The notes under the pieces are model-generated. The model saw nothing but the letters and a program-made list of their open reading frames with translations. It made no database searches and was not told where the DNA came from. This document shows, one piece after another, positions 1-16,386 of a DNA stretch of 16,386 bases. The translations under genes were made by a program, and so were the position numbers. The DNA is from a virus (Duplodnaviria; Heunggongvirae; Uroviricota; Caudoviricetes): positions 1 to 16,386 of IMG/VR virus record IMGVR_UViG_2923323785_000006. One strand, given 5' to 3'. How positions within the stretch are numbered: position 1 is the first letter of the stretch; each line of letters begins with the position of its first letter.

Positions 1-88
1 TTATCTTCTGGTATTTAGCTATCCCTCATAAGTTAATTGCCGCTGAGATATCCTAAGCTCTAGCCTCTGAAAATACATTTATATTTCG

Positions 89-114
89 AAGCCCGCGATA
101 TTTTAAGCGGGCTT
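89..114 (+). terminator. Hairpin (aagcccgc / gcgggctt, 10-nt loop) followed by TTATTTTA; intrinsic terminator candidate downstream of tfa
   Basis: Seen in sequence: 8-bp GC-rich inverted repeat at 89-96 / 107-114, T-rich tract 115-122 on + strand. On the minus (tfa) strand the flank is A-rich, so function there is less certain. Confidence 0.45.
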
Positions 115-119
115 TTATT

Positions 120-701
120 TTAAACTTCAGGTATTACAGGCCACTCAATATCAGGTGCAGTTGATGTATCAACACGGTTCAGCAACACCCGATACTTTTT
201 CCAGGCTTCCAGCAATGAGGTTTCTTCCTCCGTTGCGATTTCCAGATCTACAGCATCCTGAAGTGGCGCAATATGCTCACTGGCTACCTGCATCAGGCTG
301 TTTTTTGTTTCTTCCGCCTCCCGGATCCGGAACAGTTTTTCTGCTTCTGCATCTTTCACCCAGGCTGTGCCGTTCCACTTCTGAAACTCCCCTTCCGGCG
401 ATAACCAGGTAACATTTTCCGGTAATGATCCGAGTTCAGAAATAAATAACGCGTCGCCGGAAGCCACGTCATAAACCGTTTTACCCCGATGATCTTCAAC
501 GAGATGCCACGATGACTCATCACTGTTGAAAACAGCCACGAAGCCAGCCGGAATATCTGGCGGTGCAATATAGGTACTGTTTGCTGGCAGACCTGTATGA
601 GGCGGAATATATGCGTCACCTTCACCAATAAATTCATTAGTTCCGGCCAGCAGATTATAAATTTTTATGGTCCGTGGTTGTTCACTCATTCTGAATGCCA
701 T
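120..701 (-). CDS. tfa: Tail fibre assembly protein (lambda Tfa-like, 193 aa)
   Basis: Translation [24 protein letters not shown]... is near-identical over its length to lambda Tfa as I recall it. ATG at 701..699 overlaps the stf stop (TAATG). Confidence 0.92.
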
Positions 702-2713
702 TATGCAAGCCTCACAATGTAGTTAAATGCGATGTTTTTGACGGTGTTTTCCGCGTTACCAGCAGCGTTAACGGTGATGGTGTGTCCATGTGAGCCAATC
801 GCAACAGAGTGCGTATGAGCACCAATACCGACAGTATGTGCGTGAGCACCTGCAGATGCGGCTGTGCCGCTGACACTATGAGTGTGCGCTCCTGCAGCAC
901 TTGTATTCACACTGGCCGTAGACACTACCTTATGTACTGACCCATTTTGTGACCACTGGCTGACTGCTGATGCGCCTGTGACACTATGAGTATGGTTTCC
1001 GGCACTTGCGGCTGTACCGCTCACACTGTGCGTATGCGCCCCGGTGTTATTCGTGGATTTAGTGCCGTAATCAAACGACGATGTGGTTTTCGTCCCCAAA
1101 TCCGTACTGGATGCGCTGGCGCTGTGGGTGTGCGATTTAATGCCGTCCTGTTCCTGAGACAATACGGCACGACCACTGGCAGGTTTGCCCTTAATCGTCC
1201 AGCCACGCATATCAGGGATCACGCCTGACGGATAAGCGGCTGCAAGTTTCGGGTATGCAGATTTGTCAAAAGTCTGCCCCTGCATCAGGGCATAACCAGA
1301 CGGAACGGTATCTGATGGCCACGGGATTGGTGCACCGACTGGGTAGCTTTCTGGTGGAAGATTTTTCGAGGTATAAACTTCTGCCCAGTCTTCCTCAAAA
1401 CCATAGCCATCTCTTGAGGAACGGTAGAACAGACCTCCATTTCTGTAATGTGCCTTCATCTGCAAGGTCCGGCAACTTCCGACTCCGGTATAGAAGTTAA
1501 CCAGAATATAGCTGTCGCCAGAGCGGGTGACATTGTAAGCGCCTGATTCGGCATTCCATGGAACGCCCCCATCCGCATCGGCATACGTATCCGTTGCCCT
1601 TCTGGCAAAAGCAGCCACATGCGCGGCGGTTAAAGTAATATCTTTGGAACCATCAAACTCAACACCAGAAACCAGTCTTGGCGTTTGCAGCTTTGTTGCT
1701 GTTAATGCATTACCGTTCAGACTTGCGGACAGTTTGGTTCCAATAACCAGTTCGCCGGTTGCGTTATCAATAGCAAACGGTCTTAATGTATTCCAGCCAC
1801 CATAAACATCACCTTGATTGGTAAGCAGCAGGTAAGTTTTAGCGCCATCATTACGCCATAATGCACCATACTCCCCACCTATCATTCGAATCTGATTACC
1901 ACCACGCGCTACAATTTCGTCTGTGGCAAAAAGTTTTTTGCACGACAAGTTATCGTTAACGATTAACGAATGAGACTCATAAAAACCACGCCCACTCTTA
2001 AAATCAAGGATAACGTCCGCCGCGATACATTCAGTCGCTGGATTTGTTGCCCCAAACTTATAGGTCGTATCATTAACAACGAGATCAGCACCAGGTGCGG
2101 ATATTGACAGGCCATCTTCGATAAACGCAAAAACAGGGAAAGCAGCGCCATCAACATAGAACACAGAGCGCAAATCATCGCCCTTATTACTCATCATTAT
2201 TGAGTGGATGGCTCGTTCATTGTTTTGATATTGCCAGAACATTCCATAAGCATAACGCCCCCTGTCAGTCCAGCCACCAGGCATAACAAATCCGTTAAAC
2301 TCGCAGTTATTCATCGGATCGCCTGCGGTTCGCGTTGCCGTGGTGATAATGACCCTTGATGCCAGTTCGCTTACTGAGCCAGCAGAACGCATAACAACAA
2401 CAGGGTAATATTTTCCAGATGTTGCACCTGCAGGAGCGTTAACCCGCACATAACGCATACCACGCTTATCAGCAAAGTCTGTTTTACTGACCGCGTTAAT
2501 GTTGTTCAGGAAGCGTCCCTTATCGGGTATATCAGCGCCGTTCTGGTCTTTCTGCAGACGTTTCTCAGCATTGTCATTGGCTGCTTTTACTGCCTTTGGC
2601 GTTGCCGCCAGCGTTTCAGACGTGCTGTTGGTCGCACTGCTGAGCTGTACTATCCCCTTTTTCGTCGTGCTCGCATCCTCAAGCGCCACGGCGGATGCAA
2701 TACCGGCGCGACG
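701..2713 (-). pseudogene. stf: 5'-truncated side tail fibre gene (C-terminal ~660 codons of a lambda Stf-like protein; ORF track begins at a GTG at 2689)
   Basis: Translation ...[34 protein letters not shown]... through the His-rich [15 protein letters not shown] repeats and C-terminal ...[29 protein letters not shown] matches the lambda Stf C-terminal part. Homology stops near 2700-2713 where the frame runs into a stop, so the N-terminal ~450 codons are missing. Confidence 0.88.
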
Positions 2714-2772
2714 ATGATGCGGGCCTGTGGAGTTCTGCCGATCTGACTTATGTCATTACCTATGAAATGTGA
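2701..2772 (+). pseudogene. 3' remnant of minor tail protein U gene (last ~23 codons)
   Basis: In-frame translation [23 protein letters not shown] matches the lambda gpU C-terminus as recalled; no upstream continuation. Confidence 0.6.
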
Positions 2773-2778
2773 GGACGA

Positions 2779-3238
2779 TATGCCTGTACCAAATCCAGCA
2801 ATACCGGTGAAAGGTGCCGGAACCACCCTGTGGGTTTATAACGGGAGCGGCGACTCTTATGCGAACCCGCTTTCAGACGTTGACTGGTCGCGTCTGGCTA
2901 AAGTTAAAGACCTGACGCCCGGCGAACTGACCGCTGAGTCCTATGACGACAGTTATCTCGATGATGAAGATGCGGACTGGACCGCGACCGGGCAGGGGCA
3001 GAAATCCGCCGGAGATACCAGCTTCACGCTGGCGTGGATGCCCGGAGAGCAGGGGCAGCAGGCGCTGCTGGCGTGGTTTAATGAAGGTGATACCCGTGCC
3101 TATAAAATCCGCTTCCCACCACAAGCACGCTGCCGCCACCTTTCAGGGCTGAACGCTGCCCCTTTTTACGACGCCTGCGTCGGGACAGGACAATCCGCGC
3201 GTTACCCAGCTTTATTACGGGCAAATCCCCCCGGTTAA
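2779..3238 (+). pseudogene. Major tail protein V, N-terminal fragment (~113 aa of V fused to 40 unrelated codons)
   Basis: [50 protein letters not shown]...AYKIRFP matches the lambda gpV N-terminus; identity ends near nt 3118, after which the ORF continues in unrelated sequence to a stop at 3238. GAGGA Shine-Dalgarno precedes the ATG at 2779. Confidence 0.85.
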
Positions 3239-3295
3239 CCTTGATTCTGGCCTGCGGATTTTTGACCGTGGCCCTTTTCAGCCTGGCCCTTTCCT

Positions 3296-3880
3296 TTACC
3301 AGTTTCCGGCGTACCTTTGTCTCACGGGCAACCTGTGACGCCGACTGCGATATCGCGGATGAAGCAACGCGGTTATCAGTTCATCCAGCGCGGCTGCTTT
3401 GTTCATGGCTTTGATGATATCCCGTTTCAGGAAATCAACATGTCGGTTTTCCAGTTCCGGAAAACGCCGCTGCACCGACAGGGGGATCCCGTCGAGAATA
3501 CTGGCAATTTCACCTGCGATCCGCGACAGCACGAAAGTACAGAATGCGGTTTCCACCACTTCAGCGGAGTCTCTGGCATTTTTCAGCTCCTGTGCGTCGG
3601 CCTGCGCACGCGTAAGTCGATGGCGTTCGTACTCAATAGTCCCTGGCTGGAGATCTGTCTCGCTGGCCTGCCGCAGTTCTTCAACTTCCCGGCGCAGCTT
3701 TTCGTTCTCAATTTCAGCATCCCTTTCGGCATACCATCTTATAACGGCGGCAGAGTCATAAAGCACCTCATTACCCTTGCCACCGCCTCGCAGAACGGGC
3801 ATTCCCTGTTCCTGCCAGTTCTGAATGGTACGGATACTCGCACCGAAAATGTCAGCCAGCTGCTTTTTGTTGACTTCCAT
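3296..3880 (-). CDS. nohD: Terminase small subunit Nu1 homologue with replaced C-terminus (194 aa)
   Basis: MEVNKKQLADIFGASIRTIQNWQEQGMPVLRGGGKGNEVLYDSAAV... is near-identical to lambda Nu1 up to ...AAALDELI (about residue 171), then diverges (ITALLHPRYRSRRHRLPVRQRYAGNW). No gpA large terminase gene follows. Confidence 0.9.
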   Translation of the reverse strand: MEVNKKQLADIFGASIRTIQNWQEQGMPVLRGGGKGNEVLYDSAAVIRWYAERDAEIENEKLRREVEELRQASETDLQPGTIEYERHRLTRAQADAQELKNARDSAEVVETAFCTFVLSRIAGEIASILDGIPLSVQRRFPELENRHVDFLKRDIIKAMNKAAALDELITALLHPRYRSRRHRLPVRQRYAGNW

Positions 3881-4057
3881 TGTTCATCCCACGGCCAAAA
3901 ACAGAGAAAGGAAACGACAGAGGCCCAAAAGCTCGTTTTCAGCACCTGTCGTTTCCTTTCTTTTCAGGGGGTATTTTAAATAAAAACATTAAGTTACGAC
4001 GAAGAAGAACGGAAATACCTTAAACCGGAAAATTTTCATAAATAGCGAAAACCCGCG
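3881..4057 (-). promoter_or_regulatory. cosB region (Nu1-binding R sites and IHF site between cosN and the Nu1 start)
   Basis: Reverse complement reproduces the lambda left-end leader. R-site-like repeats seen at about 3906-3921, 3946-3961 and 3999-4014 (cgtttcc(t/g)ttct motifs and their complements). Confidence 0.75.
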
Positions 4058-4069
4058 AGGTCGCCGCCC
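4058..4069 (-). promoter_or_regulatory. cosN cohesive-end sequence (GGGCGGCGACCT on minus strand)
   Basis: Plus strand aggtcgccgccc is the exact reverse complement of the 12-nt lambda cohesive end, flanked by lambda-like left-end and right-end sequence. Confidence 0.85.
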
Positions 4070-4268
4070 CGTAACCTGTCGGATCGCCGGAAAGGACCCA
4101 CAAAATGATAATAATTATCATCTACATGTCACAACGTGCATCTACGCCATCAAACCACGTCAAATAATCAATTATGACGCAGGTATCGTATTAATTGATC
4201 TGCATCAACTTAACGTAAAAACAACTTCAGACAATACAAATCAGCGACACTGAATACGGGGCAACCTC

Positions 4269-4463
4269 ATGTCAACTAAGAACAGAACCCGCAGAACAAC
4301 AACCCGCAACATCCGCTTTCCTAACCAAATGATTGAACAAATTAACATCGCTCTTGAGCAAAAAGGGTCCGGGAATTTCTCAGCCTGGGTCATTGAAGCC
4401 TGCCGTCGGAGGCTAACGTCAGAAAAGAGAGCATATACATCAATTAAAAGTGATGAAGAATGA
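4269..4463 (+). CDS. ylcI: Small basic protein (64 aa), lambda right-end / DLP12 ylcI-like; possible ribbon-helix-helix fold
   Basis: ATG at 4269, MSTKNRTRRTTTRNIRFPNQMIEQINIALEQKGSGNFSAWVIEACRRRL...; position between cos and ybcW matches the DLP12 order as I recall it. Symbol assigned by position and length, not verified. Confidence 0.6.
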   Translation: MSTKNRTRRTTTRNIRFPNQMIEQINIALEQKGSGNFSAWVIEACRRRLTSEKRAYTSIKSDEE

Positions 4464-4627
4464 ACATCCCGCGTTCTTCCCTCCGAACAGGACGATATTG
4501 TAAATTCACTTAATTACGAGGGCATTGCAGTAATTGAGTTGCAGTTTTACCACTTTCCTGACAGTGACAGACTGCGTGTTGGCTCTGTCACAGGTTAAGT
4601 AGTTTGAATGATTAGCAGTTATGGTGA

Positions 4628-4834
4628 TCAGTCAACCACCAGGGAATAATCCTTCATATTATTATCGTGCTTCACCAACGCTGCCTCAATTGCCCTGAAT
4701 GCTTCCAGAGACACCTTATGTTCTATACATGCAATTACAACATCAGGGTAACTCATAGAAATGGTGCTATTAAGCATATTTTTTACACGAATCAGATCCA
4801 CGGAGGGATCATCAGCAGATTGTTCTTTATTCAT
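4628..4834 (-). CDS. ybcW: Small prophage protein YbcW-like (68 aa)
   Basis: ATG at 4834 with GGAG 9 nt upstream; translation [40 protein letters not shown]... matches my recollection of DLP12 YbcW. Confidence 0.7.
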
Positions 4835-5119
4835 TTTGTCGCTCCATGCGCTTGCTCTTCATCTAGCGGTTAAAATATTACTTCAAATCTTTCTGTATGA
4901 AGGTTTGAGCACGTTGGCCTTACATACATCTGTCGGTTGTATTTCCCTCCAGAATGCCAGCAGGACCGCACTTTGTTACGCAACCAATACTATTAATTGA
5001 AAACATTCCTAATATTTGACATAAATCATCAACAAAACACAAAGAGGTCAGACCAGATTGAAGCGATAAAAACGATAATGCAAACTACGCGCCCTCGTAT
5101 CACATGGAAGGTTTTACCA

Positions 5120-5530
5120 ATGGCTCAGGTTGCCATTTTTAAAGAAATATTCGATCAAGTGCGAAAAGATTTAAACTGTGAATTGTTTTATTCTGAACTA
5201 AAACGTCACAATGTCTCACATTATATTTACTATCTAGCCACAGATAATATTCACATTGTGTTAGAAAACGATAACACCGTGTTAATAAAAGGACTTAAAA
5301 AGGTTGTAAATGTTAAATTCTCAAGAAATACGCATCTTATAGAAACGTCCTATGATAGGTTGAAATCAAGAGAAATCACATTTCAGCAATACAGGGAAAA
5401 TCTTGCTAAAGCAGGAGTTTTCCGATGGATTACAAATATCCACGAACATAAAAGATATTACTATACCTTTGATAATTCATTACTATTTACTGAGAGCATT
5501 CAGAACACTACACAAATCTTTCCACGCTAA
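5120..5530 (+). CDS. ybcV: DUF1398-family protein YbcV-like (136 aa)
   Basis: ORF track starts at a TTG (4997); the internal ATG at 5120 has a GGAAGG Shine-Dalgarno 8 nt upstream and gives 136 aa ([43 protein letters not shown]...), the length I recall for YbcV. Confidence 0.75.
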
Positions 5531-5820
5531 ATCATAACGTCCGGTTTCTTCCGTGTCAGCACCGGGGTGTTGGCATAATACAATGCATGTACGCGCTAAA
5601 CCCTGTGTGCATCGTTTTTAATTATTCCCGGACACTCCCGCAGAGAAGTTCCCCGTCAGGGCTGTGGACATAGTTAATCCGGGAATACAATGACGATTCA
5701 TCGCACCTGGCATACATTAATAAATATTAACAATATGAAATTTCAACTCATTGTTTAGGGTTTGTTTAATTTTCTACACATACGATTCTGCGAACTTCAA
5801 AAAGCATCGGGAATAACACC

Positions 5821-6114
5821 ATGAAAAAAATGCTACTCGCTACTGCGCTGGCCCTGCTTATTACAGGATGTGCTCAACAGACATTTACTGTTCAAAACAA
5901 ACAGACAGCAGTAGCACCAAAGGAAACCATCACCCATCATTTCTTCGTTTCTGGAATTGGGCAGAAGAAAACTGTCGATGCAGCTAAAATTTGTGGCGGC
6001 GCAGAAAATGTTGTTAAAACAGAAACCCAGCAAACATTCGTAAATGGATTGCTCGGTTTTATTACTTTAGGCATTTATACTCCGCTGGAAGCGCGTGTGT
6101 ATTGCTCAAAATAA
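5821..6114 (+). CDS. borD: Bor outer-membrane lipoprotein (serum-resistance protein, 97 aa)
   Basis: MKKMLLATALALLITGCAQQ... has a lipoprotein signal peptide with lipobox LITGC; near-identical to lambda Bor; opposite strand to the lysis genes as in lambda. Confidence 0.93.
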   Translation: MKKMLLATALALLITGCAQQTFTVQNKQTAVAPKETITHHFFVSGIGQKKTVDAAKICGGAENVVKTETQQTFVNGLLGFITLGIYTPLEARVYCSK

Positions 6115-6145
6115 TTGCATGAGTTGCCCATCGATATGGTCAGCT

Positions 6146-6607
6146 CTATCTGCACTGCTCATTAATATACTTCTGGGTTCCTTCCAGTTGTTTTTGCATA
6201 GTGATCAGCCTCTCTCTGAGGGTGAAATAATCCCGTTCAGCGGTGTCTGCCAGTCGGGGGGAGGCTGCATTATCCACGCCGGAGGCCGTGGTGGCTTCAC
6301 GCACTGACTGACAGACTGCTTTGATGTGCAACCGACGACGACCAGCGGCAACATCATCACGCAGAGCATCATTTTCAGCTTTCGCATCAGCTAACTCCTT
6401 CGTGTATTTTGCATCGAGCGCAGCAACATCACGCTGACGCATCTGCATGTCAGTAATTGCCGCGTTCGCTAGCTTCAGTTCTCTGGCATTTTTGTCGCGC
6501 TGGACTTTGTAGGCGATTGCGTTATCACGGTAATGATTGACCGCCCATGACAGGCTGACGATGATGCAGATAATCAGAGCGGATATAATCGCGGTTACTC
6601 TGCTCAC
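6146..6607 (-). CDS. rzpD: Rz i-spanin (153 aa, GTG start)
   Basis: (M)[59 protein letters not shown]... is near-identical to lambda Rz. GTG at 6607..6605 overlaps the R stop (GTGA); GGGGG Shine-Dalgarno 7 nt upstream. Confidence 0.9.
6205..6387 (-). CDS. rzoD: Rz1 o-spanin lipoprotein embedded in the +1 frame of Rz (60 aa)
   Basis: [60 protein letters not shown]: lipobox VVGC and proline-rich region, matches lambda Rz1 as recalled; lies entirely inside Rz. Confidence 0.88.
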
Positions 6608-7101
6608 TGTTGCCCCCACAAACAGACTTCACGCTCAATCTCACGACGAGTCATCAGGCCTTTCCATTGCTTACCGCCAGCGTATGTCCAGCGACGCAGC
6701 TGATCACATGCGCCTTTGATATCGCCCTGGTTTATTTTGCGAAGAAGCGTCGATGTTCTAAAATTGCCAGCACCCACGTTGTAAACGAATGAGTAAAGAG
6801 CGCCGCGCGTTGTTTCCGGTATATCGACTTTGATATACGGGTTAATTTGTCTGGCGACAGTGGCAAGGTCTTTATTCAAGAGTGCTTTGCATTCTGCTTT
6901 GGTATACGTTTTACCGAGCATGATGTCTTTTCCGGTGTGTCCGTGACATACAGTCCATACACCAACAATATCTTTGTATGGTATGTAGCTGACACCTTCC
7001 AGACCATCGTTACCACTTGGGCCAGTGATTAACACTGATGCTATAGCAATTGCTCCGCCACCAATAGCAGCAGCAACGGCTTTTCGTAATGATGGAGGCA
7101 T
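6604..7101 (-). CDS. rrrD: SAR endolysin (P21 R-type lysozyme, 165 aa)
   Basis: N-terminal signal-anchor-release segment ([20 protein letters not shown]) followed by a T4-lysozyme-like catalytic region; ATG at 7101 overlaps the holin stop (TAATG). Confidence 0.9.
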
Positions 7102-7316
7102 TATTCACCTCTCGCGGCCTTGCGCTTATCTTCTTTAATCTTGAAATAAAGGTTTGTCAGGTACGTCAGCAGGCCAAATACCAGGCTACCCAGCACACCT
7201 ATTGCTGCCCACTGTGAGGGAGTGACTTTATCGAGCAGCTGTAAAAACCAGTAACCGGCACTACCTGCTGAGGTGCCATAGGCGACTCCAGTTGTTAACT
7301 TATCCATGAATTTCAT
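7101..7316 (-). CDS. essD: Pinholin (S21-type, 71 aa, dual-start motif MKFM)
   Basis: [71 protein letters not shown]: two transmembrane segments, Lys before the second Met (holin/antiholin dual start); GAGGTGGGG Shine-Dalgarno upstream of 7316. The ORF-track extension to 7361 is rejected. Confidence 0.88.
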
Positions 7317-7361
7317 AACCCCACCTCGCAGACAAAGCGGGTGTAAATTGAGGGAATACAA

Positions 7362-7904
7362 CGTATCGCAAAAAAGCAGAAACGTAACTGACTCCGAGTC
7401 AGTGAATAACTCAGGTATTGAGTTATCAGCTAATATCGAGACTCAAAAAATGGAAAAACCAGCGCGACGGCGGGTTTAAGCTGTGTGACGAAGTAACCAC
7501 TCTTAACAGCATAACCAATTTTTTACGTACGTAAACCACTGAATGATATTTATGAGAATGCTACCGAGTGTTCAAAACATCACCACAAATACATAAGAAA
7601 ACTTCAACAAATAACCAATAAATAATTTCCAGTGTTATTTTTAGCTGGTTTAAATTAAACAGACGAATTATAGAACCACCATAAATAACAGCCATTAATA
7701 TAAATTAGCTAATAGATTTATTTTTGTTCAAATAAGAGCCATAAATAGGTTTCGATAGAAAAAGTTCAGATAAAAATAGAGATCTACTTCACAAATTAAA
7801 TGAGAAACTAAAACTTACATCTTGAAATAATCACATTGATTAGATGAATATTTATCGCGCAGTGACATCATTTTTTAATAATAGTTCAAAAAAAAGGGCT
7901 CACG
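7362..7904 (+). promoter_or_regulatory. AT-rich ~540-bp non-coding region upstream of nmpC (porin promoter / regulatory region, possible H-NS target)
   Basis: Seen in sequence: long A/T runs (7560-7900) and no credible ORF; lies between the divergent holin and porin starts. Confidence 0.4.
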
Positions 7905-9002
7905 ATGAAAAAATTAACAGTGGCAATTTCTGCTGTAGCTGCATCAGTACTGATGGCGATGTCTGCTCAGGCAGCTGAAATTTATAATAAAGACAGTAAC
8001 AAGCTGGATCTGTACGGGAAAGTTAATGCCAAGCACTACTTTTCCTCTAACGATGCAGATGATGGTGATACTACTTATGTTCGTCTGGGCTTCAAAGGCG
8101 AAACCCAAATCAACGATCAGCTGACTGGTTTCGGTCAGTGGGAATATGAATTCAAAGGCAACCGCGCTGAATCTCAAGGTTCCTCCAAAGACAAAACCCG
8201 TCTTGCATTTGCAGGCCTGAAATTCGGTGACTACGGCTCAATCGATTACGGCCGTAACTACGGTGTAGCATACGACATCGGTGCGTGGACTGACGTTCTG
8301 CCAGAATTCGGTGGCGATACCTGGACCCAAACAGATGTGTTCATGACTGGTCGCACCACTGGTGTTGCAACCTATCGTAACAACGACTTCTTTGGTCTGG
8401 TTGATGGTCTGAACTTTGCTGCTCAGTACCAAGGCAAAAACGATCGTAGCGATTTCGATAACTACACCGAAGGTAACGGTGATGGCTTCGGTTTCTCTGC
8501 TACCTATGAATACGAAGGATTCGGTATCGGTGCAACTTATGCGAAATCTGATCGTACCGACACTCAAGTTAATGCAGGGAAAGTTCTTCCTGAAGTATTT
8601 GCTTCCGGTAAAAATGCAGAAGTTTGGGCCGCAGGTCTGAAATATGACGCTAACAACATTTACCTGGCCACTACCTATTCTGAAACCCAGAATATGACTG
8701 TATTTGCTGATCACTTCGTTGCTAATAAAGCTCAAAACTTCGAAGCTGTTGCACAATATCAGTTCGATTTCGGTCTGCGTCCGTCCGTTGCTTACCTGCA
8801 ATCTAAAGGTAAGGATCTTGGAGTATGGGGCGATCAGGACTTAGTCAAATATGTTGATGTAGGTGCAACCTATTACTTCAACAAAAATATGTCTACTTTC
8901 GTTGATTACAAAATCAACCTGCTTGACAAAAATGACTTCACTAAAGCACTCGGTGTAAGCACTGATGACATCGTTGCTGTAGGTCTGGTTTACCAGTTCT
9001 AA
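7905..9002 (+). CDS. nmpC: General outer-membrane porin NmpC (OmpC/OmpF/PhoE family), intact, 365 aa
   Basis: Signal peptide [23 protein letters not shown], then [17 protein letters not shown]... and C-terminal ...VAVGLVYQF (terminal Phe, beta-barrel signature); classic enterobacterial porin motifs throughout. Confidence 0.93.
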
Positions 9003-9018
9003 TCTGATTACGAAAAAG

Positions 9019-9053
9019 ATATGTTGCGGGAGGCGTTGCCTCCCCAACATATA
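9019..9053 (-). terminator. Long hairpin (about 15 bp with one bulge) followed on the minus strand by CTTTTTCG; candidate tR'-like terminator of the late leader
   Basis: Seen in sequence: atatgttgcgggaggc / gcctccccaacatat inverted repeat; U-tract on the minus strand only; sits about 140-170 nt downstream of the Q stop. Confidence 0.5.
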
Positions 9054-9140
9054 AGTGGCTCCCTCAAGCCACTTCCTTTAGGAGCACAACCTTGCTTCTA
9101 ACTATATAAACCTTCTGTTATATATTACCCTTTATTTTTG

Positions 9141-9165
9141 GGGGCGTTGCAACGCCCCATTTTTA
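9141..9165 (+). terminator. Intrinsic terminator (ggggcg-ttgcaa-cgcccc followed by ATTTTTA), probable nmpC terminator
   Basis: Seen in sequence: perfect 6-bp GC stem, 6-nt loop, T-tract on + strand. Confidence 0.65.
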
Positions 9166-9191
9166 ATAACTTTCAGTAAACAATTGGCATA

Positions 9192-9575
9192 TTAATTAGA
9201 GTTATTAACAACGATATCCATCTCTAACCGGATATCTAATGCCATTAACATCCCTTCAATTATGCCCTCAGCCTTCTGTAACCTTTTCCCGATATAACCA
9301 TCAGAGCAGCAATGCTTACCTGCCAGTGACATGAATGTCATACCGACTACATAATAATCTACTAATAAATCGTGCAAATCGCTGTTGTTCTTTTTCAGAC
9401 GGGCCATGCACCCGCAAATGATCATCGCGTCATCGTCACAACATTGCGGGCGAGATTTTACTTTTGAAGGAATTAATCCCTTAAAACCGGCGGCAATGGA
9501 CGACCAGGTCACATCTTCATGATTATTAGCCGCCCACGCTCCCCAACGTTCAAGAACCATCTGAATATCACGCAT
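9192..9575 (-). CDS. quuD: Late-gene antiterminator Q (127 aa)
   Basis: [62 protein letters not shown]... matches my recollection of DLP12 QuuD; ATG at 9575 with GGAGAAAG Shine-Dalgarno; position directly upstream of the lysis cassette. Confidence 0.85.
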
Positions 9576-9592
9576 TAACTTTCTCCACAAAA

Positions 9593-10588
9593 TCAGGCCA
9601 GCACACCAATCGCCAGTGCGCGATCGATAAAACGAAATATCAGCTCCAGCTGGGAGCCATACTTCTCTTCAAATGCCACGGTATCCGCATGCAGTTCGTC
9701 GTGGTGTTTTCTGCACAAAGGCAGCACAAAAAGGTCATGCGCTTTTGTACCCATTCCACCCTGACCATGGCCTATCAGATGATGCGGATCATCAGCTGGC
9801 TTTCCACAACATGCACACGGCTGCGTCTTAACCCAGCGCGTGTACTGTTCATTAACCCAGCGACGACGTTTGGGGCGTAACATAAAAGACTCCGGCGACT
9901 CCGGATCCACTTTCAGCGCCAGCACCTTTTTCGCTTTATCCTGGATAATGCTGGTGGCAGGAACCGAAGGCACAAGGTCACTTTCCCGGGTGACAGACGG
10001 CAAAACAGACTTCGGTAATCTCAGTGCCTTACGGGCTGCGCTTTCCGGTAAGGCATCCGCCAGGTCATTACGAACCAGCCACCAGCACAGTTCCGGCATT
10101 GTCACGGCATGGTTATCATTAAAATCGAGATCCCGACGGACTACAGACAACACCCAATGGGCACAGTTATCCGTTGCCATTGATTCCAGCCGCTCCGTGA
10201 ACTGATCACGTAACTGATTATCGCAGTGCCAGCACAGACGGATTGCGCCCGGCGCGTGTCGCATTGTGGTCATGTTCTCGCTGTGCCAGTCGGAATGAGG
10301 CCACTGGCAGCCTTTTTCACGAAGTAACCAGCTTTCAAGACATTCCACCCCACCAGCACGACGAATCACTGCCTCATTACGGAACACGGCCCGAACGGCA
10401 GGATCATCCGCCAGCGGTTGTGATGCCGCGGGAACGGCACCACTGGCGAAAGATGAATAATGCTCCGGCTCAGGCTCCAGCAGTACACGCCCCTGCATAA
10501 ACAGGGGCATCAGCTCTGAACCGGGCCTGAACAATACGATCCCCATACGCGGGGCAATTTCAGGGGTCAGTAGTGCTCTCACGGTCAC
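9593..10588 (-). CDS. DUF968-like (YdfU-like) protein with C-terminal HNH-like metal-binding motif (about 329-331 aa; start GTG at 10588 or 10582)
   Basis: C-terminal ...[46 protein letters not shown]... has CxxC, His-His and C..HH..H spacing typical of HNH nucleases; additional CWHC motif mid-protein. Sits immediately upstream of Q, like ydfU-quuQ in the Qin prophage (from memory). Confidence 0.7.
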
Positions 10589-10589
10589 C

Positions 10590-11387
10590 TCAATGAACGG
10601 TATCGAGCAGCTTTAACAGCTCAGGGAATCGGGATTCGAAGAAATGCGGCTGCGTCTCGCGCGGATTTGCGGGACTGGTGATGTTCTTGCCGAACATGCA
10701 GCCTTTCGCTGTCAGCGACCAGAATTTTTTGATGTTGTTAATAGCGGTACGGCTGTATCGTTCGCGCTGCTCGACGATCCCCAGCTTCACCATCTGGTGA
10801 TATGCCTGATTAGCTGTCAGGCGGATACCATACTGCTTCAGCAGTGCACTCAGTGACAGCGTGGGACGGCTTGAGCCATCAGGCGCGTCAGCAGGAGCAT
10901 CAATGGCATAGCGCGGTGCCAGATTCGGTAAGCCAACAGCCTCCTGGAGTTTCTGACAGGCACCAAGCACTGAAGAGTTAGACAGGTTTAACTCCCGGCG
11001 CATAAAGTCCAGCAGAATCACGCCAGCCTGCATCTTGTCAGCAGCCTGCCCGGATAATTTTTCCGATGCGCTGGTTACCATATCGAAAGTACGGATCACC
11101 TTCAGATGGAATGACGGGCTGATCCACATTGCATAGGCATACACCAGTTCTTTGCAGACATACGTCCCCTGGTTATTTCCGCCACGAATAACGTTAACTG
11201 GCTCTATATTGACCGAGTTGCAAATCTGCAACTCGCTTATTAAACGTTCAGTTTGCTCATTGCGGAGCCAGAATGCAGGCTTATGCTTATCCAGAGAACC
11301 GGCAGCCCTGTGCAGATCGTTCAGGCTGTAACGCCCATAAGCATCACGACGAACTTCAATACCATCAATGACCATCAGATTATTCAT
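10590..11387 (-). CDS. KilA-N domain protein with ANT/KilAC-like C-terminal half (antirepressor-like, 265 aa)
   Basis: N-terminus MNNLMVIDGIEVRRDAYGRYSLNDLHRAAGSLDKHKPAFWLRNEQTERLISEL... resembles the KilA-N fold family; ATG at 11387 with AGAGGAGAAA Shine-Dalgarno. The ORF-track GTG extension to 11420 is rejected. Confidence 0.72.
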   Translation of the reverse strand: MNNLMVIDGIEVRRDAYGRYSLNDLHRAAGSLDKHKPAFWLRNEQTERLISELQICNSVNIEPVNVIRGGNNQGTYVCKELVYAYAMWISPSFHLKVIRTFDMVTSASEKLSGQAADKMQAGVILLDFMRRELNLSNSSVLGACQKLQEAVGLPNLAPRYAIDAPADAPDGSSRPTLSLSALLKQYGIRLTANQAYHQMVKLGIVEQRERYSRTAINNIKKFWSLTAKGCMFGKNITSPANPRETQPHFFESRFPELLKLLDTVH

Positions 11388-11406
11388 ACTTCGTTTCTCC
11401 TCTTGA

Positions 11407-11796
11407 TCAGGCGGCTGCACCCGCCGTTTTCTCGTACTTACTGATAGTGATCTCGACCTTCCCTTCCGGGATAACCGGTCCCCACTCCACCAGCATTCTT
11501 TTCACCTGGCTGTCGTCTTCCCACACACCCGCGTGGGTCAGGGCGTCAAACAGCGCCTTGTTATAGTTGTCCAGATCGCGGATCCGGTTATCCGGAGGAA
11601 ACAACACGATCTCCACTGAAGCAGGTGCCGACGTTGGTTTCGGCAGACGACGTAACTGCTCAACTATTGCTGTGCACGCCGCACTCTGGAATTTTCGCCC
11701 CGCCGCGCTTATCAGGCTCTTACCAGCAAATGCCCCTTTGTTGGGGTGTCGCCAGTAGGTGTTCACGCTGGGTGGAAAAGGCAGAATCAGCTTCAT
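11407..11796 (-). CDS. rusA: RusA-family Holliday junction resolvase (129 aa)
   Basis: MKLILPFPPSVNTYWRH... and RDLDNYNKALFDALTHAGVWEDDSQV match RusA catalytic-region motifs. ATG at 11796 overlaps the stop of the upstream gene (ATGA); GAGGGGG Shine-Dalgarno. Confidence 0.85.
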   Translation of the reverse strand: MKLILPFPPSVNTYWRHPNKGAFAGKSLISAAGRKFQSAACTAIVEQLRRLPKPTSAPASVEIVLFPPDNRIRDLDNYNKALFDALTHAGVWEDDSQVKRMLVEWGPVIPEGKVEITISKYEKTAGAAA

Positions 11797-12119
11797 ACTT
11801 TCAGCCCCCTCTCATGTAACCAGTGGGCTGCACGCAGCCTGGCGTTTTCCTCACCAGCAAGCAGTGCGCGGATAATCCCGGCCACCTCGCTGTCGTCGTC
11901 CTTCACCGCGGTATGAAGCGTGATGCCCCGGGCCACGCCACGCTTTATCGTGATGACGCCTTTTTTCTCCAGTGCGCGAAGATGCTCCACCGCTGCATTC
12001 ACTGAACGGTATCCCAGCATGGTAGCCACCTCCTGATTGGTTGGCGGGAAGCCACGTTCTTTCTGGTAAGAAATCAGCATATCCAGCACCTGCTGCTGGC
12101 ATTGAGTTAACGTCGTCAT
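11793..12119 (-). CDS. LexA N-terminal DNA-binding-domain-only protein (about 108 aa; no S24 peptidase domain)
   Basis: MTTLTQCQQQVLDMLISYQKERGFPPTNQEVATMLGYRSVNAAVEHLRALEKKGVITIKRGVARGITL aligns position-by-position with the LexA winged-helix domain (recalled from memory); the protein ends about 40 aa later. ATG at 12119 overlaps the upstream stop (TAATG); GGGGG Shine-Dalgarno. Confidence 0.8.
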   Translation of the reverse strand: MTTLTQCQQQVLDMLISYQKERGFPPTNQEVATMLGYRSVNAAVEHLRALEKKGVITIKRGVARGITLHTAVKDDDSEVAGIIRALLAGEENARLRAAHWLHERGLKV

Positions 12120-12370
12120 TAAGCCCCCACGTAATTCCCTGACAGATACCACTCTTCACCCGATACAGCGCGCTTGCTGCTTTTCCGTAAACACCGCTCA
12201 CGACGCGCAAGAAAATTGTTTCGCTCTTGCTGGGAGTGGCTTTCACGGAATGCCGCCATCCACACCGTTGCAGCACGACGGTATAAGCCCCTGGACTCCA
12301 GTTCTTCCGCCTGGCGGGTCAGGCACAAAATCACCCGGGGATCGTTAGTGCCGACATAGAAATTGTGCAC
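12119..12370 (-). CDS. Small PerC/Pch-like putative transcriptional activator (83 aa, GTG start)
   Basis: Motif AEELESRGLYRRAATVWMAAF resembles the LE..G.WRRAA..W core I recall for the PerC family; family assignment is from memory and the start codon is GTG without a strong Shine-Dalgarno. Confidence 0.5.
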   Translation of the reverse strand: MHNFYVGTNDPRVILCLTRQAEELESRGLYRRAATVWMAAFRESHSQQERNNFLARRERCLRKSSKRAVSGEEWYLSGNYVGA

Positions 12371-12406
12371 AGGTCTGGATTCACGAACTGGTTGCGGTTC
12401 CGGCTC

Positions 12407-12607
12407 CTACGGTATCTCAGTCAGCCGCGGGAAATGTCTGCGTGTATCCCCTTCACAACGGTGAGCCACACGCCCACTCTGACGTAACTTGCTTGCTGAC
12501 TGCAGAACGCGCTGTCGTGAGTAACCTGCAAAAGCATCAGCAATGTCTCCGGAAGTACACCCCGGATGGGCTTCAATGAATTTCTGAACGTCATTCAAAA
12601 GACTCAT
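12407..12607 (-). CDS. Small hypothetical protein (66 aa), possible winged-helix DNA-binding fold; first gene of the minus-strand operon
   Basis: ATG at 12607 with GGGGGTGA Shine-Dalgarno 6 nt upstream; MSLLNDVQKFIEAHPGCTSGDIADAFAGYSRQRVLQSASKLRQSGRV... The ORF-track extension to 12730 is rejected (Arg/Gln-rich, no ribosome-binding site). Confidence 0.45.
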   Translation of the reverse strand: MSLLNDVQKFIEAHPGCTSGDIADAFAGYSRQRVLQSASKLRQSGRVAHRCEGDTRRHFPRLTEIP

Positions 12608-12849
12608 GATCACCCCCTGAATCCTGCCGGGATCTGGCTGTAGTCCACGTTGTCGTAACTGGCTTTGAAGTACGGGTCTTCGCGTTTTTCGGTGTACGTG
12701 CTGACTATTCTGCAGGAAGACTATGGACAATTACTGACTCTTGCCGGTGAACCTGACGGAAAACTACGCGCAGCAGGTCATTAATATCGTTCTTAATAAA
12801 CTGATTATTTATCTCATCACTGAATATCTTTATATAGTGAGGACTTATT
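12608..12849. promoter_or_regulatory. Divergent intergenic region between the minus-strand (nin/Q/late) and plus-strand (yfdQ...int) operons; presumed promoters, no repressor gene
   Basis: No ORF with repressor features on either strand; AGTGAGGA Shine-Dalgarno for the first plus-strand gene at 12836-12843; promoter hexamers not confidently assignable by eye. Confidence 0.4.
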
Positions 12850-13674
12850 ATGTCTCAGAACTTAGACGCAACCGCAATTAATCAAATCCATGCCCTTATT
12901 TCTGCTCAGGGTGTTAATGAAATTATCAGTAAGATTTGTGCCGATGCTGTGGCATTGCCTGAGAATTTCCGCATTCATGATCTGGAAAAATTTAATTTAA
13001 ATCGCTTCCGTTTCCGTGGTGCGCTTTCCACTGCCAGCATCGATGACTTTACCCGTTATTCTAAAGATCTTGCAGATGAAGGCACCCGCTGCTTTATCGA
13101 TGCCGATAATATGCAAGCCGTCAGTGTGCTTAACCTGGGTACTATTGATGAACCAGGTCACGCAGATAACACCGCCACTCTCAAACTGAAAAAGACAGCA
13201 CCGTTCTCTGCCCTGTTGTCTGTTAACGGCGAGCGTAACTCCCAGAAGTCACTGGCAGAATGGATTGAAGACTGGGCCGACTACCTTGTGGGCTTTGATG
13301 CTAATGGTGACGCCATTCAGGCAACCAAAGCGGCTGCGGCGATCCGTAAAATCACAATTGAAGCGAACCAGACCGCTGATTTTGAAGATAATGACTTCAG
13401 CGGCAAACGCTCCCTGATGGAGTCTGTCGAAGCGAAGACCAAAGACATTATGCCAGGGGCATTTGAATTTAAATGCGTTCCGTTTGAAGGTCTGAAAGAA
13501 CGTCCATTTAAATTACGCCTCAGCATTATCACTGGCGATCGTCCTGTACTGGTTCTGCGCATTATTCAGCTGGAAGCGGTGCAGGAAGAAATGGCTAACG
13601 AATTTCGTGATCTGCTTGTTGAGAAATTCAAAGACAGCAAAGTAGAAACCTTTATTGGTACTTTCACCGCCTGA
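12850..13674 (+). CDS. yfdQ: YfdQ-like protein (DUF2303-type, 274 aa)
   Basis: [21 protein letters not shown]...; length and sequence match my recollection of CPS-53 YfdQ; first gene of a four-gene cluster. Confidence 0.75.
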
Positions 13675-13686
13675 TTTCATTACTGC

Positions 13687-13710
13687 AAATGCCCCTGCGG
13701 GGGCATTTAT
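13687..13710 (+). terminator. Hairpin (tgcccc-tgcg-ggggca) followed by TTTAT; candidate attenuator or terminator between the first two cluster genes
   Basis: Seen in sequence: aaatgcccctgcgggggcattt near-perfect inverted repeat directly after the yfdQ-like stop. Confidence 0.5.
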
Positions 13711-13801
13711 GGAAACGTAATTAACTCAATAATCACCGGATGGTGAGGGCTTCCTTTTACCAGAATTCAGCGCGGTGCAGTGCATACACGTGGAGAACAA
13801 A

Positions 13802-14338
13802 ATGTCATTTATTAAAACTTTTTCCGGGAAGCATTTTTATTATGACAAGATAAATAAAGACGACATCGATATTAACGATATCGCGGTTTCCCTTTCAAAT
13901 ATCTGTCGCTTTGCCGGTCATCTTTCGCACTTCTACAGCGTCGCCCAACATGCGGTTCTTTGCAGCCAGCTGGTGCCGCAGGAATTTGCTTTTGAAGCGT
14001 TAATGCATGATGCAACAGAAGCGTATTGCCAGGACATTCCCGCACCACTGAAACGCCTTCTTCCTGACTATAAACGGATGGAAGAAAAAATAGACGCCGT
14101 AATCCGTGAGAAATACGGGTTACCCCCAGTTATGAGTACACCCGTGAAATATGCCGATCTCATCATGCTGGCAACCGAACGCCGCGATCTCGGGCTTGAT
14201 GATGGCTCTTTCTGGCCTGTACTGGAAGGCATCCCGGCAACAGAGATGTTCAACGTGATTCCACTGGCACCGGGTCATGCCTACGGGATGTTTATGGAAC
14301 GTTTTAACGATTTATCGGAGTTACGCAAATGCGCATGA
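13802..14338 (+). CDS. yfdR: HD-domain phosphohydrolase, YfdR-like 5'-deoxynucleotidase (178 aa)
   Basis: ATG at 13802 with GGAGAA Shine-Dalgarno; HD-domain metal-binding signature ...FAGHLSHFYSVAQHAVL...MHDATEAY...; length equals K-12 YfdR as recalled. The ORF-track GTG start at 13775 is rejected. Confidence 0.85.
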   Translation: MSFIKTFSGKHFYYDKINKDDIDINDIAVSLSNICRFAGHLSHFYSVAQHAVLCSQLVPQEFAFEALMHDATEAYCQDIPAPLKRLLPDYKRMEEKIDAVIREKYGLPPVMSTPVKYADLIMLATERRDLGLDDGSFWPVLEGIPATEMFNVIPLAPGHAYGMFMERFNDLSELRKCA

Positions 14339-14691
14339 ATGTTTTCGAAATGGAAGGGTTTCTTCGCGGGAAATGTGTACCGCGAGATCTGAAAGTGAAC
14401 GAAACAAATGCTGAGTACCTGGTACGTAAATTCGACGCGCTTGAAGCTAAATGTGCGGCACTGGAAAACAAAATAATACCAGTGTCAGCTGAACTGCCAC
14501 CAGCAAATGAAAGTGTTCTGTTATTTGATGCTAATGGAGAAGGCTGGCTGATTGGCTGGCGTTCTCTCTGGTACACCTGGGGACAAAAAGAAACCGGAGA
14601 ATGGCAGTGGACATTTCAGGTCGGGGACCTTGAAAACGTCAATATCACTCACTGGGCAGTAATGCCAAAAGCACCGGAGGCTGGAGCATAA
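14329..14691 (+). CDS. yfdS: YfdS-like protein (120 aa)
   Basis: MRMNVFEMEGFLRGKCVPRDLKVNETNAEYLV...; overlaps the upstream stop by 10 nt, and its stop overlaps the next start (TAATG). Confidence 0.7.
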   Translation: MRMNVFEMEGFLRGKCVPRDLKVNETNAEYLVRKFDALEAKCAALENKIIPVSAELPPANESVLLFDANGEGWLIGWRSLWYTWGQKETGEWQWTFQVGDLENVNITHWAVMPKAPEAGA

Positions 14692-14996
14692 TGACCACAT
14701 TTACCAATAAAGAACTGATTAAAGAAATCAAAGAACGAATCAGCAGCCTAGAGGTTCGAGACGATATTGAGCGCCGTGCTTATGAAATCGCACTCGTATC
14801 TCTGGAAGTAGAGCCAGATGAACGCGAAGCCTATGAATTATTCATGGAAAAGCGTTTCGGTGACTTAGTAGATCGTCGGAGAGCAAAAAACGGCGATAAC
14901 GAATACATGGCATGGGATATGACTCTCGGTTGGATCGTCTGGCAGCAACGAGCTGGTATCCATTTTTCAACAATGACACAGCAAGAGGTGAAATAA
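14691..14996 (+). CDS. yfdT: YfdT-like protein (101 aa)
   Basis: MTTFTNKELIKEIKERISSLEVRDD...; start and stop both share bases with the neighbouring genes (TAATG junctions). Confidence 0.7.
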   Translation: MTTFTNKELIKEIKERISSLEVRDDIERRAYEIALVSLEVEPDEREAYELFMEKRFGDLVDRRRAKNGDNEYMAWDMTLGWIVWQQRAGIHFSTMTQQEVK

Positions 14997-15367
14997 TGGA
15001 GCCATACAGCCTCACACTCGATGAGGCCTGTCAGTTTCTTAAGATATCCAGACCAACCGCCACCAACTGGATACGAACAGGCCGCCTACAGGCAACACGT
15101 AAAGATCCAACCAAGCCAAAATCTCCTTACCTCACAACACGGCAAGCTTGCATTGCGGCGCTTCAGTCTCCGCTGCATACTGTCCAGGTGAGCGCGGGTG
15201 ATGGCATAACAGAGGAAAGAAAATGTCACTCTTCCGCAGAAATGAAATATGGTATGCCTCGTATTCGCTCCCGGGCGGGAAACGAATTAAGGAATCTCTT
15301 GGCACAAAGGACAAGCGGCAAGCTCAGGAGTTGCACGACAAGCGAAAAGCAGAACTCTGGCGAGTAG
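14996..15367 (+). CDS. Excisionase-like HTH protein (AlpA/Xis family); 3' end uncertain, reading frame overlaps int by 145 nt
   Basis: ATG at 14996 with GAGGTGA Shine-Dalgarno; [32 protein letters not shown] resembles excisionase-type HTH domains; position immediately upstream of int. The tail beyond about residue 65 may be a frameshift artefact. Confidence 0.55.
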
Positions 15368-16386
15368 AAAAGCTAGGGGATTTACCTGATGTCACTTTTG
15401 AAGAGGCCTGCCTAAGATGGCTTGAGGAAAAAGCTGATAAAAAATCTCTCGATTCAGATAAAAGCCGGATTGAGTTTTGGCTTGAACATTTTGAGGGTAT
15501 AAGGCTTAAAGATATCTCGGAGGCAAAGATTTACTCTGCTGTAAGCAGAATGCATAACAGAAAGACGAAAGAAATATGGAAACAGAAAGTTCAGGCCGCC
15601 ATCAGGAAAGGTAAAGAACCGCCTGTTTATGAACCAAAGCCAGTATCAACTCAGACAAAGGCAAAGCATCTTGCCATGATAAAGGCCATTCTCCGTGCTG
15701 CAGAACGCGACTGGAAGTGGCTGGAAAAAGCGCCTGTCATCAAGATACCAGCGGTCAGAAACAAGCGAGTCAGATGGCTGGAAAAGGAGGAAGCAAAACG
15801 CCTTATTGATGAGTGCCCCGAACCACTGAAATCTGTCGTCAAGTTTGCGCTGGCAACTGGTCTGAGAAAGTCGAACATCATAAATCTGGAATGGCAACAA
15901 ATCGACATGCAGCGACGAGTTGCCTGGGTGAATCCAGAAGAGAGCAAATCAAACCGCGCCATTGGTGTGGCGCTGAACGATACCGCCTGTAAAGTGTTGC
16001 GTGATCAAATAGGCAAGCATCACAAATGGGTGTTTGTACATACCAAGGCGGCTAAGCGAGCAGATGGAACATCAACGCCTGCGGTCAGGAAGATGCGCAT
16101 CGACAGCAAGACATCATGGCTATCAGCTTGTCGTCGTGCAGGAATTGAAGATTTCCGTTTCCATGACCTCAGACACACCTGGGCAAGCTGGCTGATCCAG
16201 TCAGGCGTCCCATTATCTGTGCTTCAGGAAATGGGCGGATGGGAGTCCATAGAAATGGTTCGTAGGTATGCTCACCTTGCGCCTAATCATTTGACAGAGC
16301 ATGCAAGGAAAATAGACGACATTTTTGGTGATAATGTCCCAAATATGTCCCACTGTGGAATTATGGAGGATATAAAGAAGGCGTAA
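15223..16386 (+). CDS. intD: Tyrosine site-specific integrase (P21/DLP12 IntD-type, 387 aa)
   Basis: [50 protein letters not shown]...; C-terminal catalytic motifs ...[39 protein letters not shown] (R..H-x-x-R...Y). GAGGAAAG Shine-Dalgarno; the stop codon is the last 3 nt of the window. Confidence 0.93.

Follow-up and report, generated by a model that had tools for sequence, protein, structure and literature searches.

The porin gene, the antiterminator gene and the spacer between them

The window, that is, the whole stretch of 16,386 nt analysed here (positions 1 to 16,386 of IMG/VR virus record IMGVR_UViG_2923323785_000006), contains a lambdoid prophage of the DLP12/PA-2 type, whose late direction is the minus strand (Table 1). 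Its antiterminator gene quuD ends with the stop codon at 9192-9194 (-) and encodes a protein of 127 aa, which is distantly related to Q21 (structures 6JNX and 6P18, E = 7.6e-8) and shares ~79-82% identity with Q proteins from many Stx phages. Facing it is nmpC, which is intact in the window and in PA-2 and carries an IS5 insertion in its K-12 copy. The convergent stop codons of the two genes enclose 189 nt (9003-9191), hereafter called the spacer, and this region was matched in 2532 of 5426 complete E. coli genomes. A contig of 442 nt labelled Streptomyces alkaliterrae (NZ_VJYK02000722.1) also matches the nmpC 3'-end/ipeX region of E. coli with 99% identity, which is probably a case of assembly contamination.

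Two further observations concern the surroundings of the locus. Upstream of Q, the gene of a DUF968 / HNH-like protein occupies 9593-10588 (-), and an HNH endonuclease gene takes the equivalent position in the cdtI phage. At 160-358 (-), within a minus-strand ORF of 193 aa, we found a full-length match to the Rfam entry IS009 (229.5 bits, E = 8e-57).

Table 1. Features of the nmpC-Q locus and of the late leader, in window coordinates.
Feature	Position	Strand	Basis
Phage-21-type holin gene	start near 7316	-	lysozyme gene next
Initial transcribed region TAAGAGTGGTTAC (7505-7493), then hairpin T1 and U tract (~7476-7445)	7445-7505	-	conserved in DLP12, Stx2 II, SfIV and cdtI phages
Homologue of the Stx-phage pR', putative start G7502	7535-7502	-	alignments to the mapped promoter
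nmpC/lc porin gene, 365 aa, intact	7905-9002	+	Pfam Porin_1, E = 1.8e-156
nmpC/lc 3' untranslated region, ipeX locus, between the stop codon of nmpC and the U tract of the terminator, inclusive	9003-9164	+	K-12 identity, fold z = -7.1
CUUUUUCG tail 3' of HP-A	9018-9011 (complement)	-	A-rich run on the porin strand; read from sequence
HP-A, first stem-loop of the 3' untranslated region (tR' hairpin of the first-pass annotation)	9019-9052	+	folding; Term-seq; P7
HP-B, 8-bp stem, CCCUCA loop	9053-9074	+	folding; P7 comparison
HP-C, 9-bp stem	9078-9101	+	folding; pair variation
HP-D and U5, intrinsic terminator of nmpC/IpeX	9141-9164	+	terminator scan, fold, Term-seq, P7
quuD, antiterminator Q, phage-21 Q family	9192-9575	-	Pfam PF06530, E = 8.5e-54

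Structure, RNA 3' ends and relatives of the spacer

A first-pass annotation of this DNA had placed a hairpin at 9019-9053, followed by a minus-strand U tract at 9011-9018, about 170 nt past the stop codon of Q, and had regarded a second hairpin at 9141-9158 as the plus-strand terminator of nmpC. As physical features, all of these were borne out. The first hairpin, HP-A, spans 9019-9052, is followed on the minus strand by CUUUUUCG and has its 3' base ~173 nt beyond 9192-9194. Two paired segments of 8 bp and 7 bp, with a one-base bulge between them (C9027, plus strand), enclose a 3-nt loop; the hairpin folds with -21.3 kcal/mol as minus-strand RNA (z = -5.6) and with -23.3 kcal/mol as plus-strand RNA (z = -5.9), none of 200 shuffled sequences being equally stable in either orientation. 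The second hairpin, HP-D, has 7 bp (six of them G-C) and a 4-nt loop, is followed by AUUUUU on the plus strand, has a folding energy of -13.9 kcal/mol and was picked by the terminator scan; a Term-seq 3' end on the last U of its U5 (see below) confirms its function as terminator of nmpC. In a TransTermHP-style scoring, the minus-strand tail of HP-A (-2.36) and the tail of HP-D (-2.39) are equal. HP-B and HP-C, which lie between the two, were absent from the earlier annotation. The 189-nt spacer as a whole is far more structured than expected by chance on both strands (z = -7.1 for the plus strand and -4.2 for the minus strand), and its plus-strand fold is both more stable and more unusual than the minus-strand one.

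Over its 189 nt, the spacer shares 97% identity with the nmpC-quuD spacer of DLP12 in K-12; with the PA-2 lc record, the identity is 98.5% over the portion present there. According to reviews, it is to this K-12 spacer that the sRNA IpeX (167 nt) maps, which is transcribed from the phage porin promoter within the porin transcript, subsequently processed, and represses the synthesis of OmpC and OmpF; on its mode of action on these targets the reviews disagree, some giving Hfq-dependent base pairing. With the ends of IpeX taken from reviews and arithmetic, counting 167 nt back from 9164 leads to the nmpC stop codon. Rfam, searched at both gathering and permissive thresholds, yielded no family for the spacer/IpeX or for the late-leader homologue described below, but chance-level matches only.

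To locate RNA ends, we searched supplementary file 1 of a Term-seq study of MG1655 (PMC7815308) for the K-12 nmpC-quuD region. In the LB OD 0.4 sheet, the sole 3' ends between 568708 and 578444 are 574367(-), with ~46,700 reads, and 574476(-), with ~23,500 reads; a second sheet gives 574366(-), with ~66,400 reads (PMC7815308). By coordinate arithmetic and comparison of the printed sequences, 574367/574366(-) corresponds to window position 9164(+), the last U after HP-D, and 574476(-) corresponds to 9055(+), 3 nt past the stem of HP-A, where a porin-strand end fits processing of the porin transcript. Both 3' ends thus lie on the porin strand, which supports a plus-strand role for both hairpins. 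At 57451x/57452x, the equivalent of the proposed tR', no Q-strand 3' end is listed in the MG1655 Term-seq data; since Q may not be transcribed in MG1655, these data say little about the minus strand.

The relatives of the spacer outside the lambdoid phages point to the porin gene as well. In the P1-like phage P7, nmpC is followed by ssb, and the nmpC region examined contains no Q gene. Window positions 7842-9133 match P7 in one continuous stretch with 74% identity, and the match runs on through the terminator given an 18-nt insertion. When folded, the 3' untranslated region of P7 presents the hairpins in the same order, all four being kept, and several stem differences are compensatory: in HP-A, AUAUGUUG...CAACAUAU becomes AUAUGCGGG...CCCGCAUAU (UUG/CAA to CGGG/CCCG); in HP-B, AAGUGGCU/AGCCACUU becomes AGGUGGCA/UGCCACCU, with two double compensatory changes and an identical CCCUCA loop; and in HP-D, GGGGCG/CGCCCC becomes GGGCGC/GCGCCC. 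After HP-A, the minus strand of P7 reads UCUUACC, with no U tract. When all genomes were scanned with a degenerate HP-B pattern, nearly all matches were at chance level and none added a lineage, a plasmid search returned near-identical copies only, and the P7 3' untranslated region as query found P7-type phages only, so that the covariation rests on two lineages. Judged by these alignments, the spacer is an element that travels with the porin gene and not with Q.

Variation within the lambdoid lineage was followed in 81 related loci with 29 distinct spacers. Here, the stems hold while the bulge and the loops vary, and one-sided changes preserve pairing mostly on the plus strand. For instance, 13 distinct variants have a plus-strand G-U pair at 9082-9097 of HP-C and 17 have A-U, and the G-U form would be a C-A mismatch on the minus strand. 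The A-rich run 5' of HP-A on the porin strand occurs in 81 of 81 loci; 35 of them (43%) have only CUUUUA as the minus-strand tail of HP-A.

These data bear on whether HP-A serves both strands, with its minus-strand U tract also ending unmodified transcription that leaves Q. HP-A and HP-D would then constitute a convergent terminator pair that shields nmpC and Q mutually, which is compatible with the spacer encoding IpeX. Such dual use would suit the convergent arrangement of the genes, the -21.3 kcal/mol of HP-A followed by C-U5 on the minus strand, a tail score that equals that of HP-D, and the A-rich run before HP-A that all 81 lambdoid loci share. However, a tract that has only four U in 43% of the loci and is absent in P7 is under no obvious selection, and MG1655 displays no Q-strand 3' end, albeit in a strain in which Q is perhaps not transcribed. 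In lambda, N-modified transcripts are known to ignore terminators during lytic growth; a transcript that crosses Q in the lytic cycle would be modified by N and ignore HP-A, too. On balance, we consider dual use of HP-A possible but rather unlikely.

A homologue of the late promoter between nmpC and the holin gene

In the Stx phages of the Sakai strain, dRNA-seq and Term-seq place the pR' start close to Q, 258 nt upstream of the 3' end of tR'. In the Stx2 II sequence, this distance puts the start at G2956, 6 nt after the TATCAT of a promoter TTTACG-16-TATCAT, and G+173 counted from G2956 falls in the reported GUAUU cleavage site. The mapped Stx pR' segment aligns with window positions 7536-7454(-), and the homologous segment is described in 933W-derived annotation as a putative late promoter with a possible terminator. 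In the window, the aligned elements are the -35 hexamer TTTACG (7535-7530) and the -10 hexamer TATGCT (7513-7508), separated by 16 bp. The aligned -10 hexamers of DLP12, Stx2 II, SfIV and cdtI (TATGCT, TATCAT, TACTGT and TAATCT, respectively) all conform to TAnnnT, and the transcribed part is nearly invariant across these four phages, whereas the -35 hexamer and the sequence between the two hexamers differ between Q subtypes, as expected of a Q binding site. The stretch of promoter and initial transcribed sequence (~7540-7481) shows rare single-base variants only, in 5 of the 81 loci, and has variable flanks. Based on these alignments, TTTACG-16-TATGCT at 7535-7508(-) is most probably the late promoter that responds to Q, with a start near 7502, some 186 nt upstream of the holin gene and ~1.6 kb from the spacer, across nmpC. 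We infer that this promoter is active and responds to Q in the present phage. The MG1655 Term-seq data list no 3' end downstream of it, and the MG1655 Cappable-seq supplements have no entries for these coordinates.

The first hairpin of this leader, T1, is weakened in the window by T7461, which is found in about half of the 81 loci, and by C7464, which is found in this window only. The 81 loci fall into two leader haplotypes, defined at 7364-7379 and 7461(-). All 32 loci without the U-rich 16-mer CTGCTTTTTTGCGATA, K-12 included, have an intact first hairpin, and all 40 loci with a weakened first hairpin keep CTGCTTTTTTGCGATA, which comes after a second hairpin at 7403-7387. This pattern may reflect a need for one terminator or more ahead of the holin gene, or plain linkage.

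Two other transcription starts have been placed in this neighbourhood. The published regulatory fragment of the DLP12 lysis operon, -121 to +650, begins inside nmpC, at K-12 position 576753, which would put the start of the lysis operon near 7856(-) in the window, beyond nmpC. A sigma-E-like sequence, GAACTA-16-TCACT, is located at 7856-7888(-), ahead of this start deduced from the -121 primer. SMRT-Cappable-seq gives an nmpC start at K-12 576870 on the reverse strand, which maps to ~7860(+).

Just upstream of the 7535 promoter, at 7521-7560(-), we detected a remnant of a 933W-type Q gene, namely its final codons and an in-frame TAA, and the alignment of QuuD with the 933W-type Q ends at residue 126, close to the end of quuD (9192-9197(-)). 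Because of this remnant and of the point at which the QuuD alignment stops, the sequences suggest that the 3' end of Q took up the porin cassette, which now separates Q from its promoter. The cassette (at least 7842-9164) would sit between Q and the place of Q action. Antisense genes also lie between a PF06530-type Q and the conserved leader module in SfIV (376-3506) and in the cdtI phage (626-2655), and SfIV has an IS1 at this site as well. The gap between Q and pR' looks like a recurrent slot for cargo.

Interpretation of the spacer and known counterparts

How do these results bear on the function that the first-pass annotation had assigned to 9011-9191, namely a unit of pR', qut and tR'? 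According to this model, pR' would be situated just past Q on the minus strand and would produce a leader of ~150-180 nt for Q to act upon, terminated by HP-A and CUUUUUCG as tR'. The site directly after Q is the textbook position for such a unit, HP-A is strong and followed by C-U5, and its tail score of -2.36 resembles that of a validated terminator. A further argument for the model comes from the related phage ev087 (2879-3035), whose Q is 89% identical to QuuD and is directly followed by the promoter-like TTGCTG-17-TAATGT, the -10-like sequence TAGAAT and a terminator similar to the tR' of Stx phages, after which comes an antisense lipocalin gene (blc); the conserved TAAGAGTGGTTAC module is absent from the ~2.5 kb examined downstream of this Q.

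Against this model stands the poor supply of promoter signals for the start that it requires. With a sigma-70 matrix, the best candidate for a start within 9160-9200 reaches 6.6 bits and has a poor -10. The sole decent candidate in the spacer is TTGCAA-19-TAATAT at 9152-9122(-), with a start at ~9115 and 9.2 bits in this crude matrix, by which the 7535 homologue scores 8.0 bits and the mapped Stx promoter 9.8 bits; its -35-like TTGCAA falls in the loop of HP-D and varies among the loci (TTGAGA, TTGAAA). By sequence scores alone, a minus-strand transcript starting near 9115 and a terminator role of HP-A would both be conceivable. A consensus promoter scan found none in the spacer, but this negative result means little, as the homologue of the mapped promoter, with 8 of 12 matches, escapes the same scan. 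Compared with Stx-phage sequences, the spacer shows no match to the pR' mapped in phages with the most closely related Q. The Q21 site is characterized by a TGAGCA direct repeat and a -10-like element; neither a Q21-type TGAGCA repeat nor a clear -10-like pause element was found at either candidate promoter, be it the one in the spacer or the one at 7535.

The other objections come from the comparisons above. The segment that P7 has in common with the window runs through the whole spacer to the terminator (with the 18-nt insertion) in a phage with no Q near its nmpC; the U tract of the supposed tR' is reduced to CUUUUA in 43% of the loci; MG1655 shows no Q-strand 3' end at the site; and the homologue of the mapped pR' is located elsewhere and is far better conserved. 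Thus, the assignment of 9011-9191 as a late leader is not supported: the spacer goes with the porin gene, as in P7, the counterpart of pR' is found at 7535-7502(-), no usable promoter is predicted for a start within 9160-9200, and the 3' ends listed for this spacer in K-12 are all on the porin strand. We regard the late-leader model as scarcely credible.

The candidate at 9152-9122(-) might alternatively be a weak promoter of its own, giving rise to an RNA of ~100 nt that starts near 9115, ends at HP-A and, being fully complementary to IpeX, would act as an antisense regulator of it. If true, the prophage would harbour a pair of sRNA and anti-sRNA that links porin control to transcription on the Q side. 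Of all minus-strand candidates in 7300-9600, this one has the sixth-best score (9.2 bits); a TATAGT resembling a -10 element is located at about +10 to +15, and the terminator-like HP-A is found downstream. A spacing of 19 bp is unfavourable, however, many similar scores are expected by chance in such an AT-rich region, the -35 is part of a variable hairpin loop, and no minus-strand 3' end has been listed in MG1655. We deem an anti-IpeX RNA very unlikely.

Most likely, then, 9003-9191 is the 3' untranslated region of the porin gene and the known ipeX locus, an already published element that acts as plus-strand RNA. We are confident of this reading in conjunction with a pR' at 7535-7502. Transcription would begin at the porin promoter, whose K-12 start is equivalent to ~7860(+), and pass through nmpC, HP-A, HP-B, HP-C and an AU-rich stretch before stopping at HP-D and its U5, at 9164, which would keep porin transcription from running antisense into Q. 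Directly 3' of the stop codon, HP-A would set a second stable 3' end at 9055, where either an exonuclease would stall or the transcript would be cut, so that the porin mRNA would be separated from the downstream IpeX fragment. Such processing at HP-A is what we infer from the hairpin and the K-12 end next to it; IpeX would then lower the synthesis of OmpC and OmpF, as described in the literature.

The interval itself adds little, since IpeX and the nmpC 3' untranslated region have been published. What it calls for is a correction of annotation: in this widespread group of prophages, pR' should not be taken for granted in the DNA that directly follows Q. Here as well as in SfIV and cdtI, antisense cargo genes are placed between Q and the conserved module of late promoter and leader, and such cargo affects how the regulation of late, lysis and toxin genes is inferred from sequence.

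Several known systems invite comparison with the spacer. Lambda 6S RNA, the pR'/tR' unit of phage 21 and StxS are likewise encoded beside the Q gene, and on their late strand, too, a hairpin is followed by a U-rich tail; unlike these units, the spacer is devoid of a convincing promoter or Q binding site and travels with the porin gene. Terminator pairs of convergent genes and bidirectional terminators similarly comprise two hairpins between convergent genes, each with a U tail on one strand, but of the two hairpins here only HP-D is experimentally supported, and the minus-strand tail of HP-A is polymorphic and missing in P7. Regulatory RNAs derived from 3' untranslated regions, and mRNA 3' ends protected by hairpins, share with the spacer a structured 3' untranslated region that includes the terminator of the parent gene, as well as an additional stable 3' end just past a stem-loop. 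Finally, IpeX of DLP12 and PA-2 coincides with the spacer in locus, sequence, porin strand and terminator, and the length from the stop codon to U5 fits 167 nt. There is no material difference between them, the nmpC of the window being intact like that of PA-2, while the K-12 copy carries IS5.
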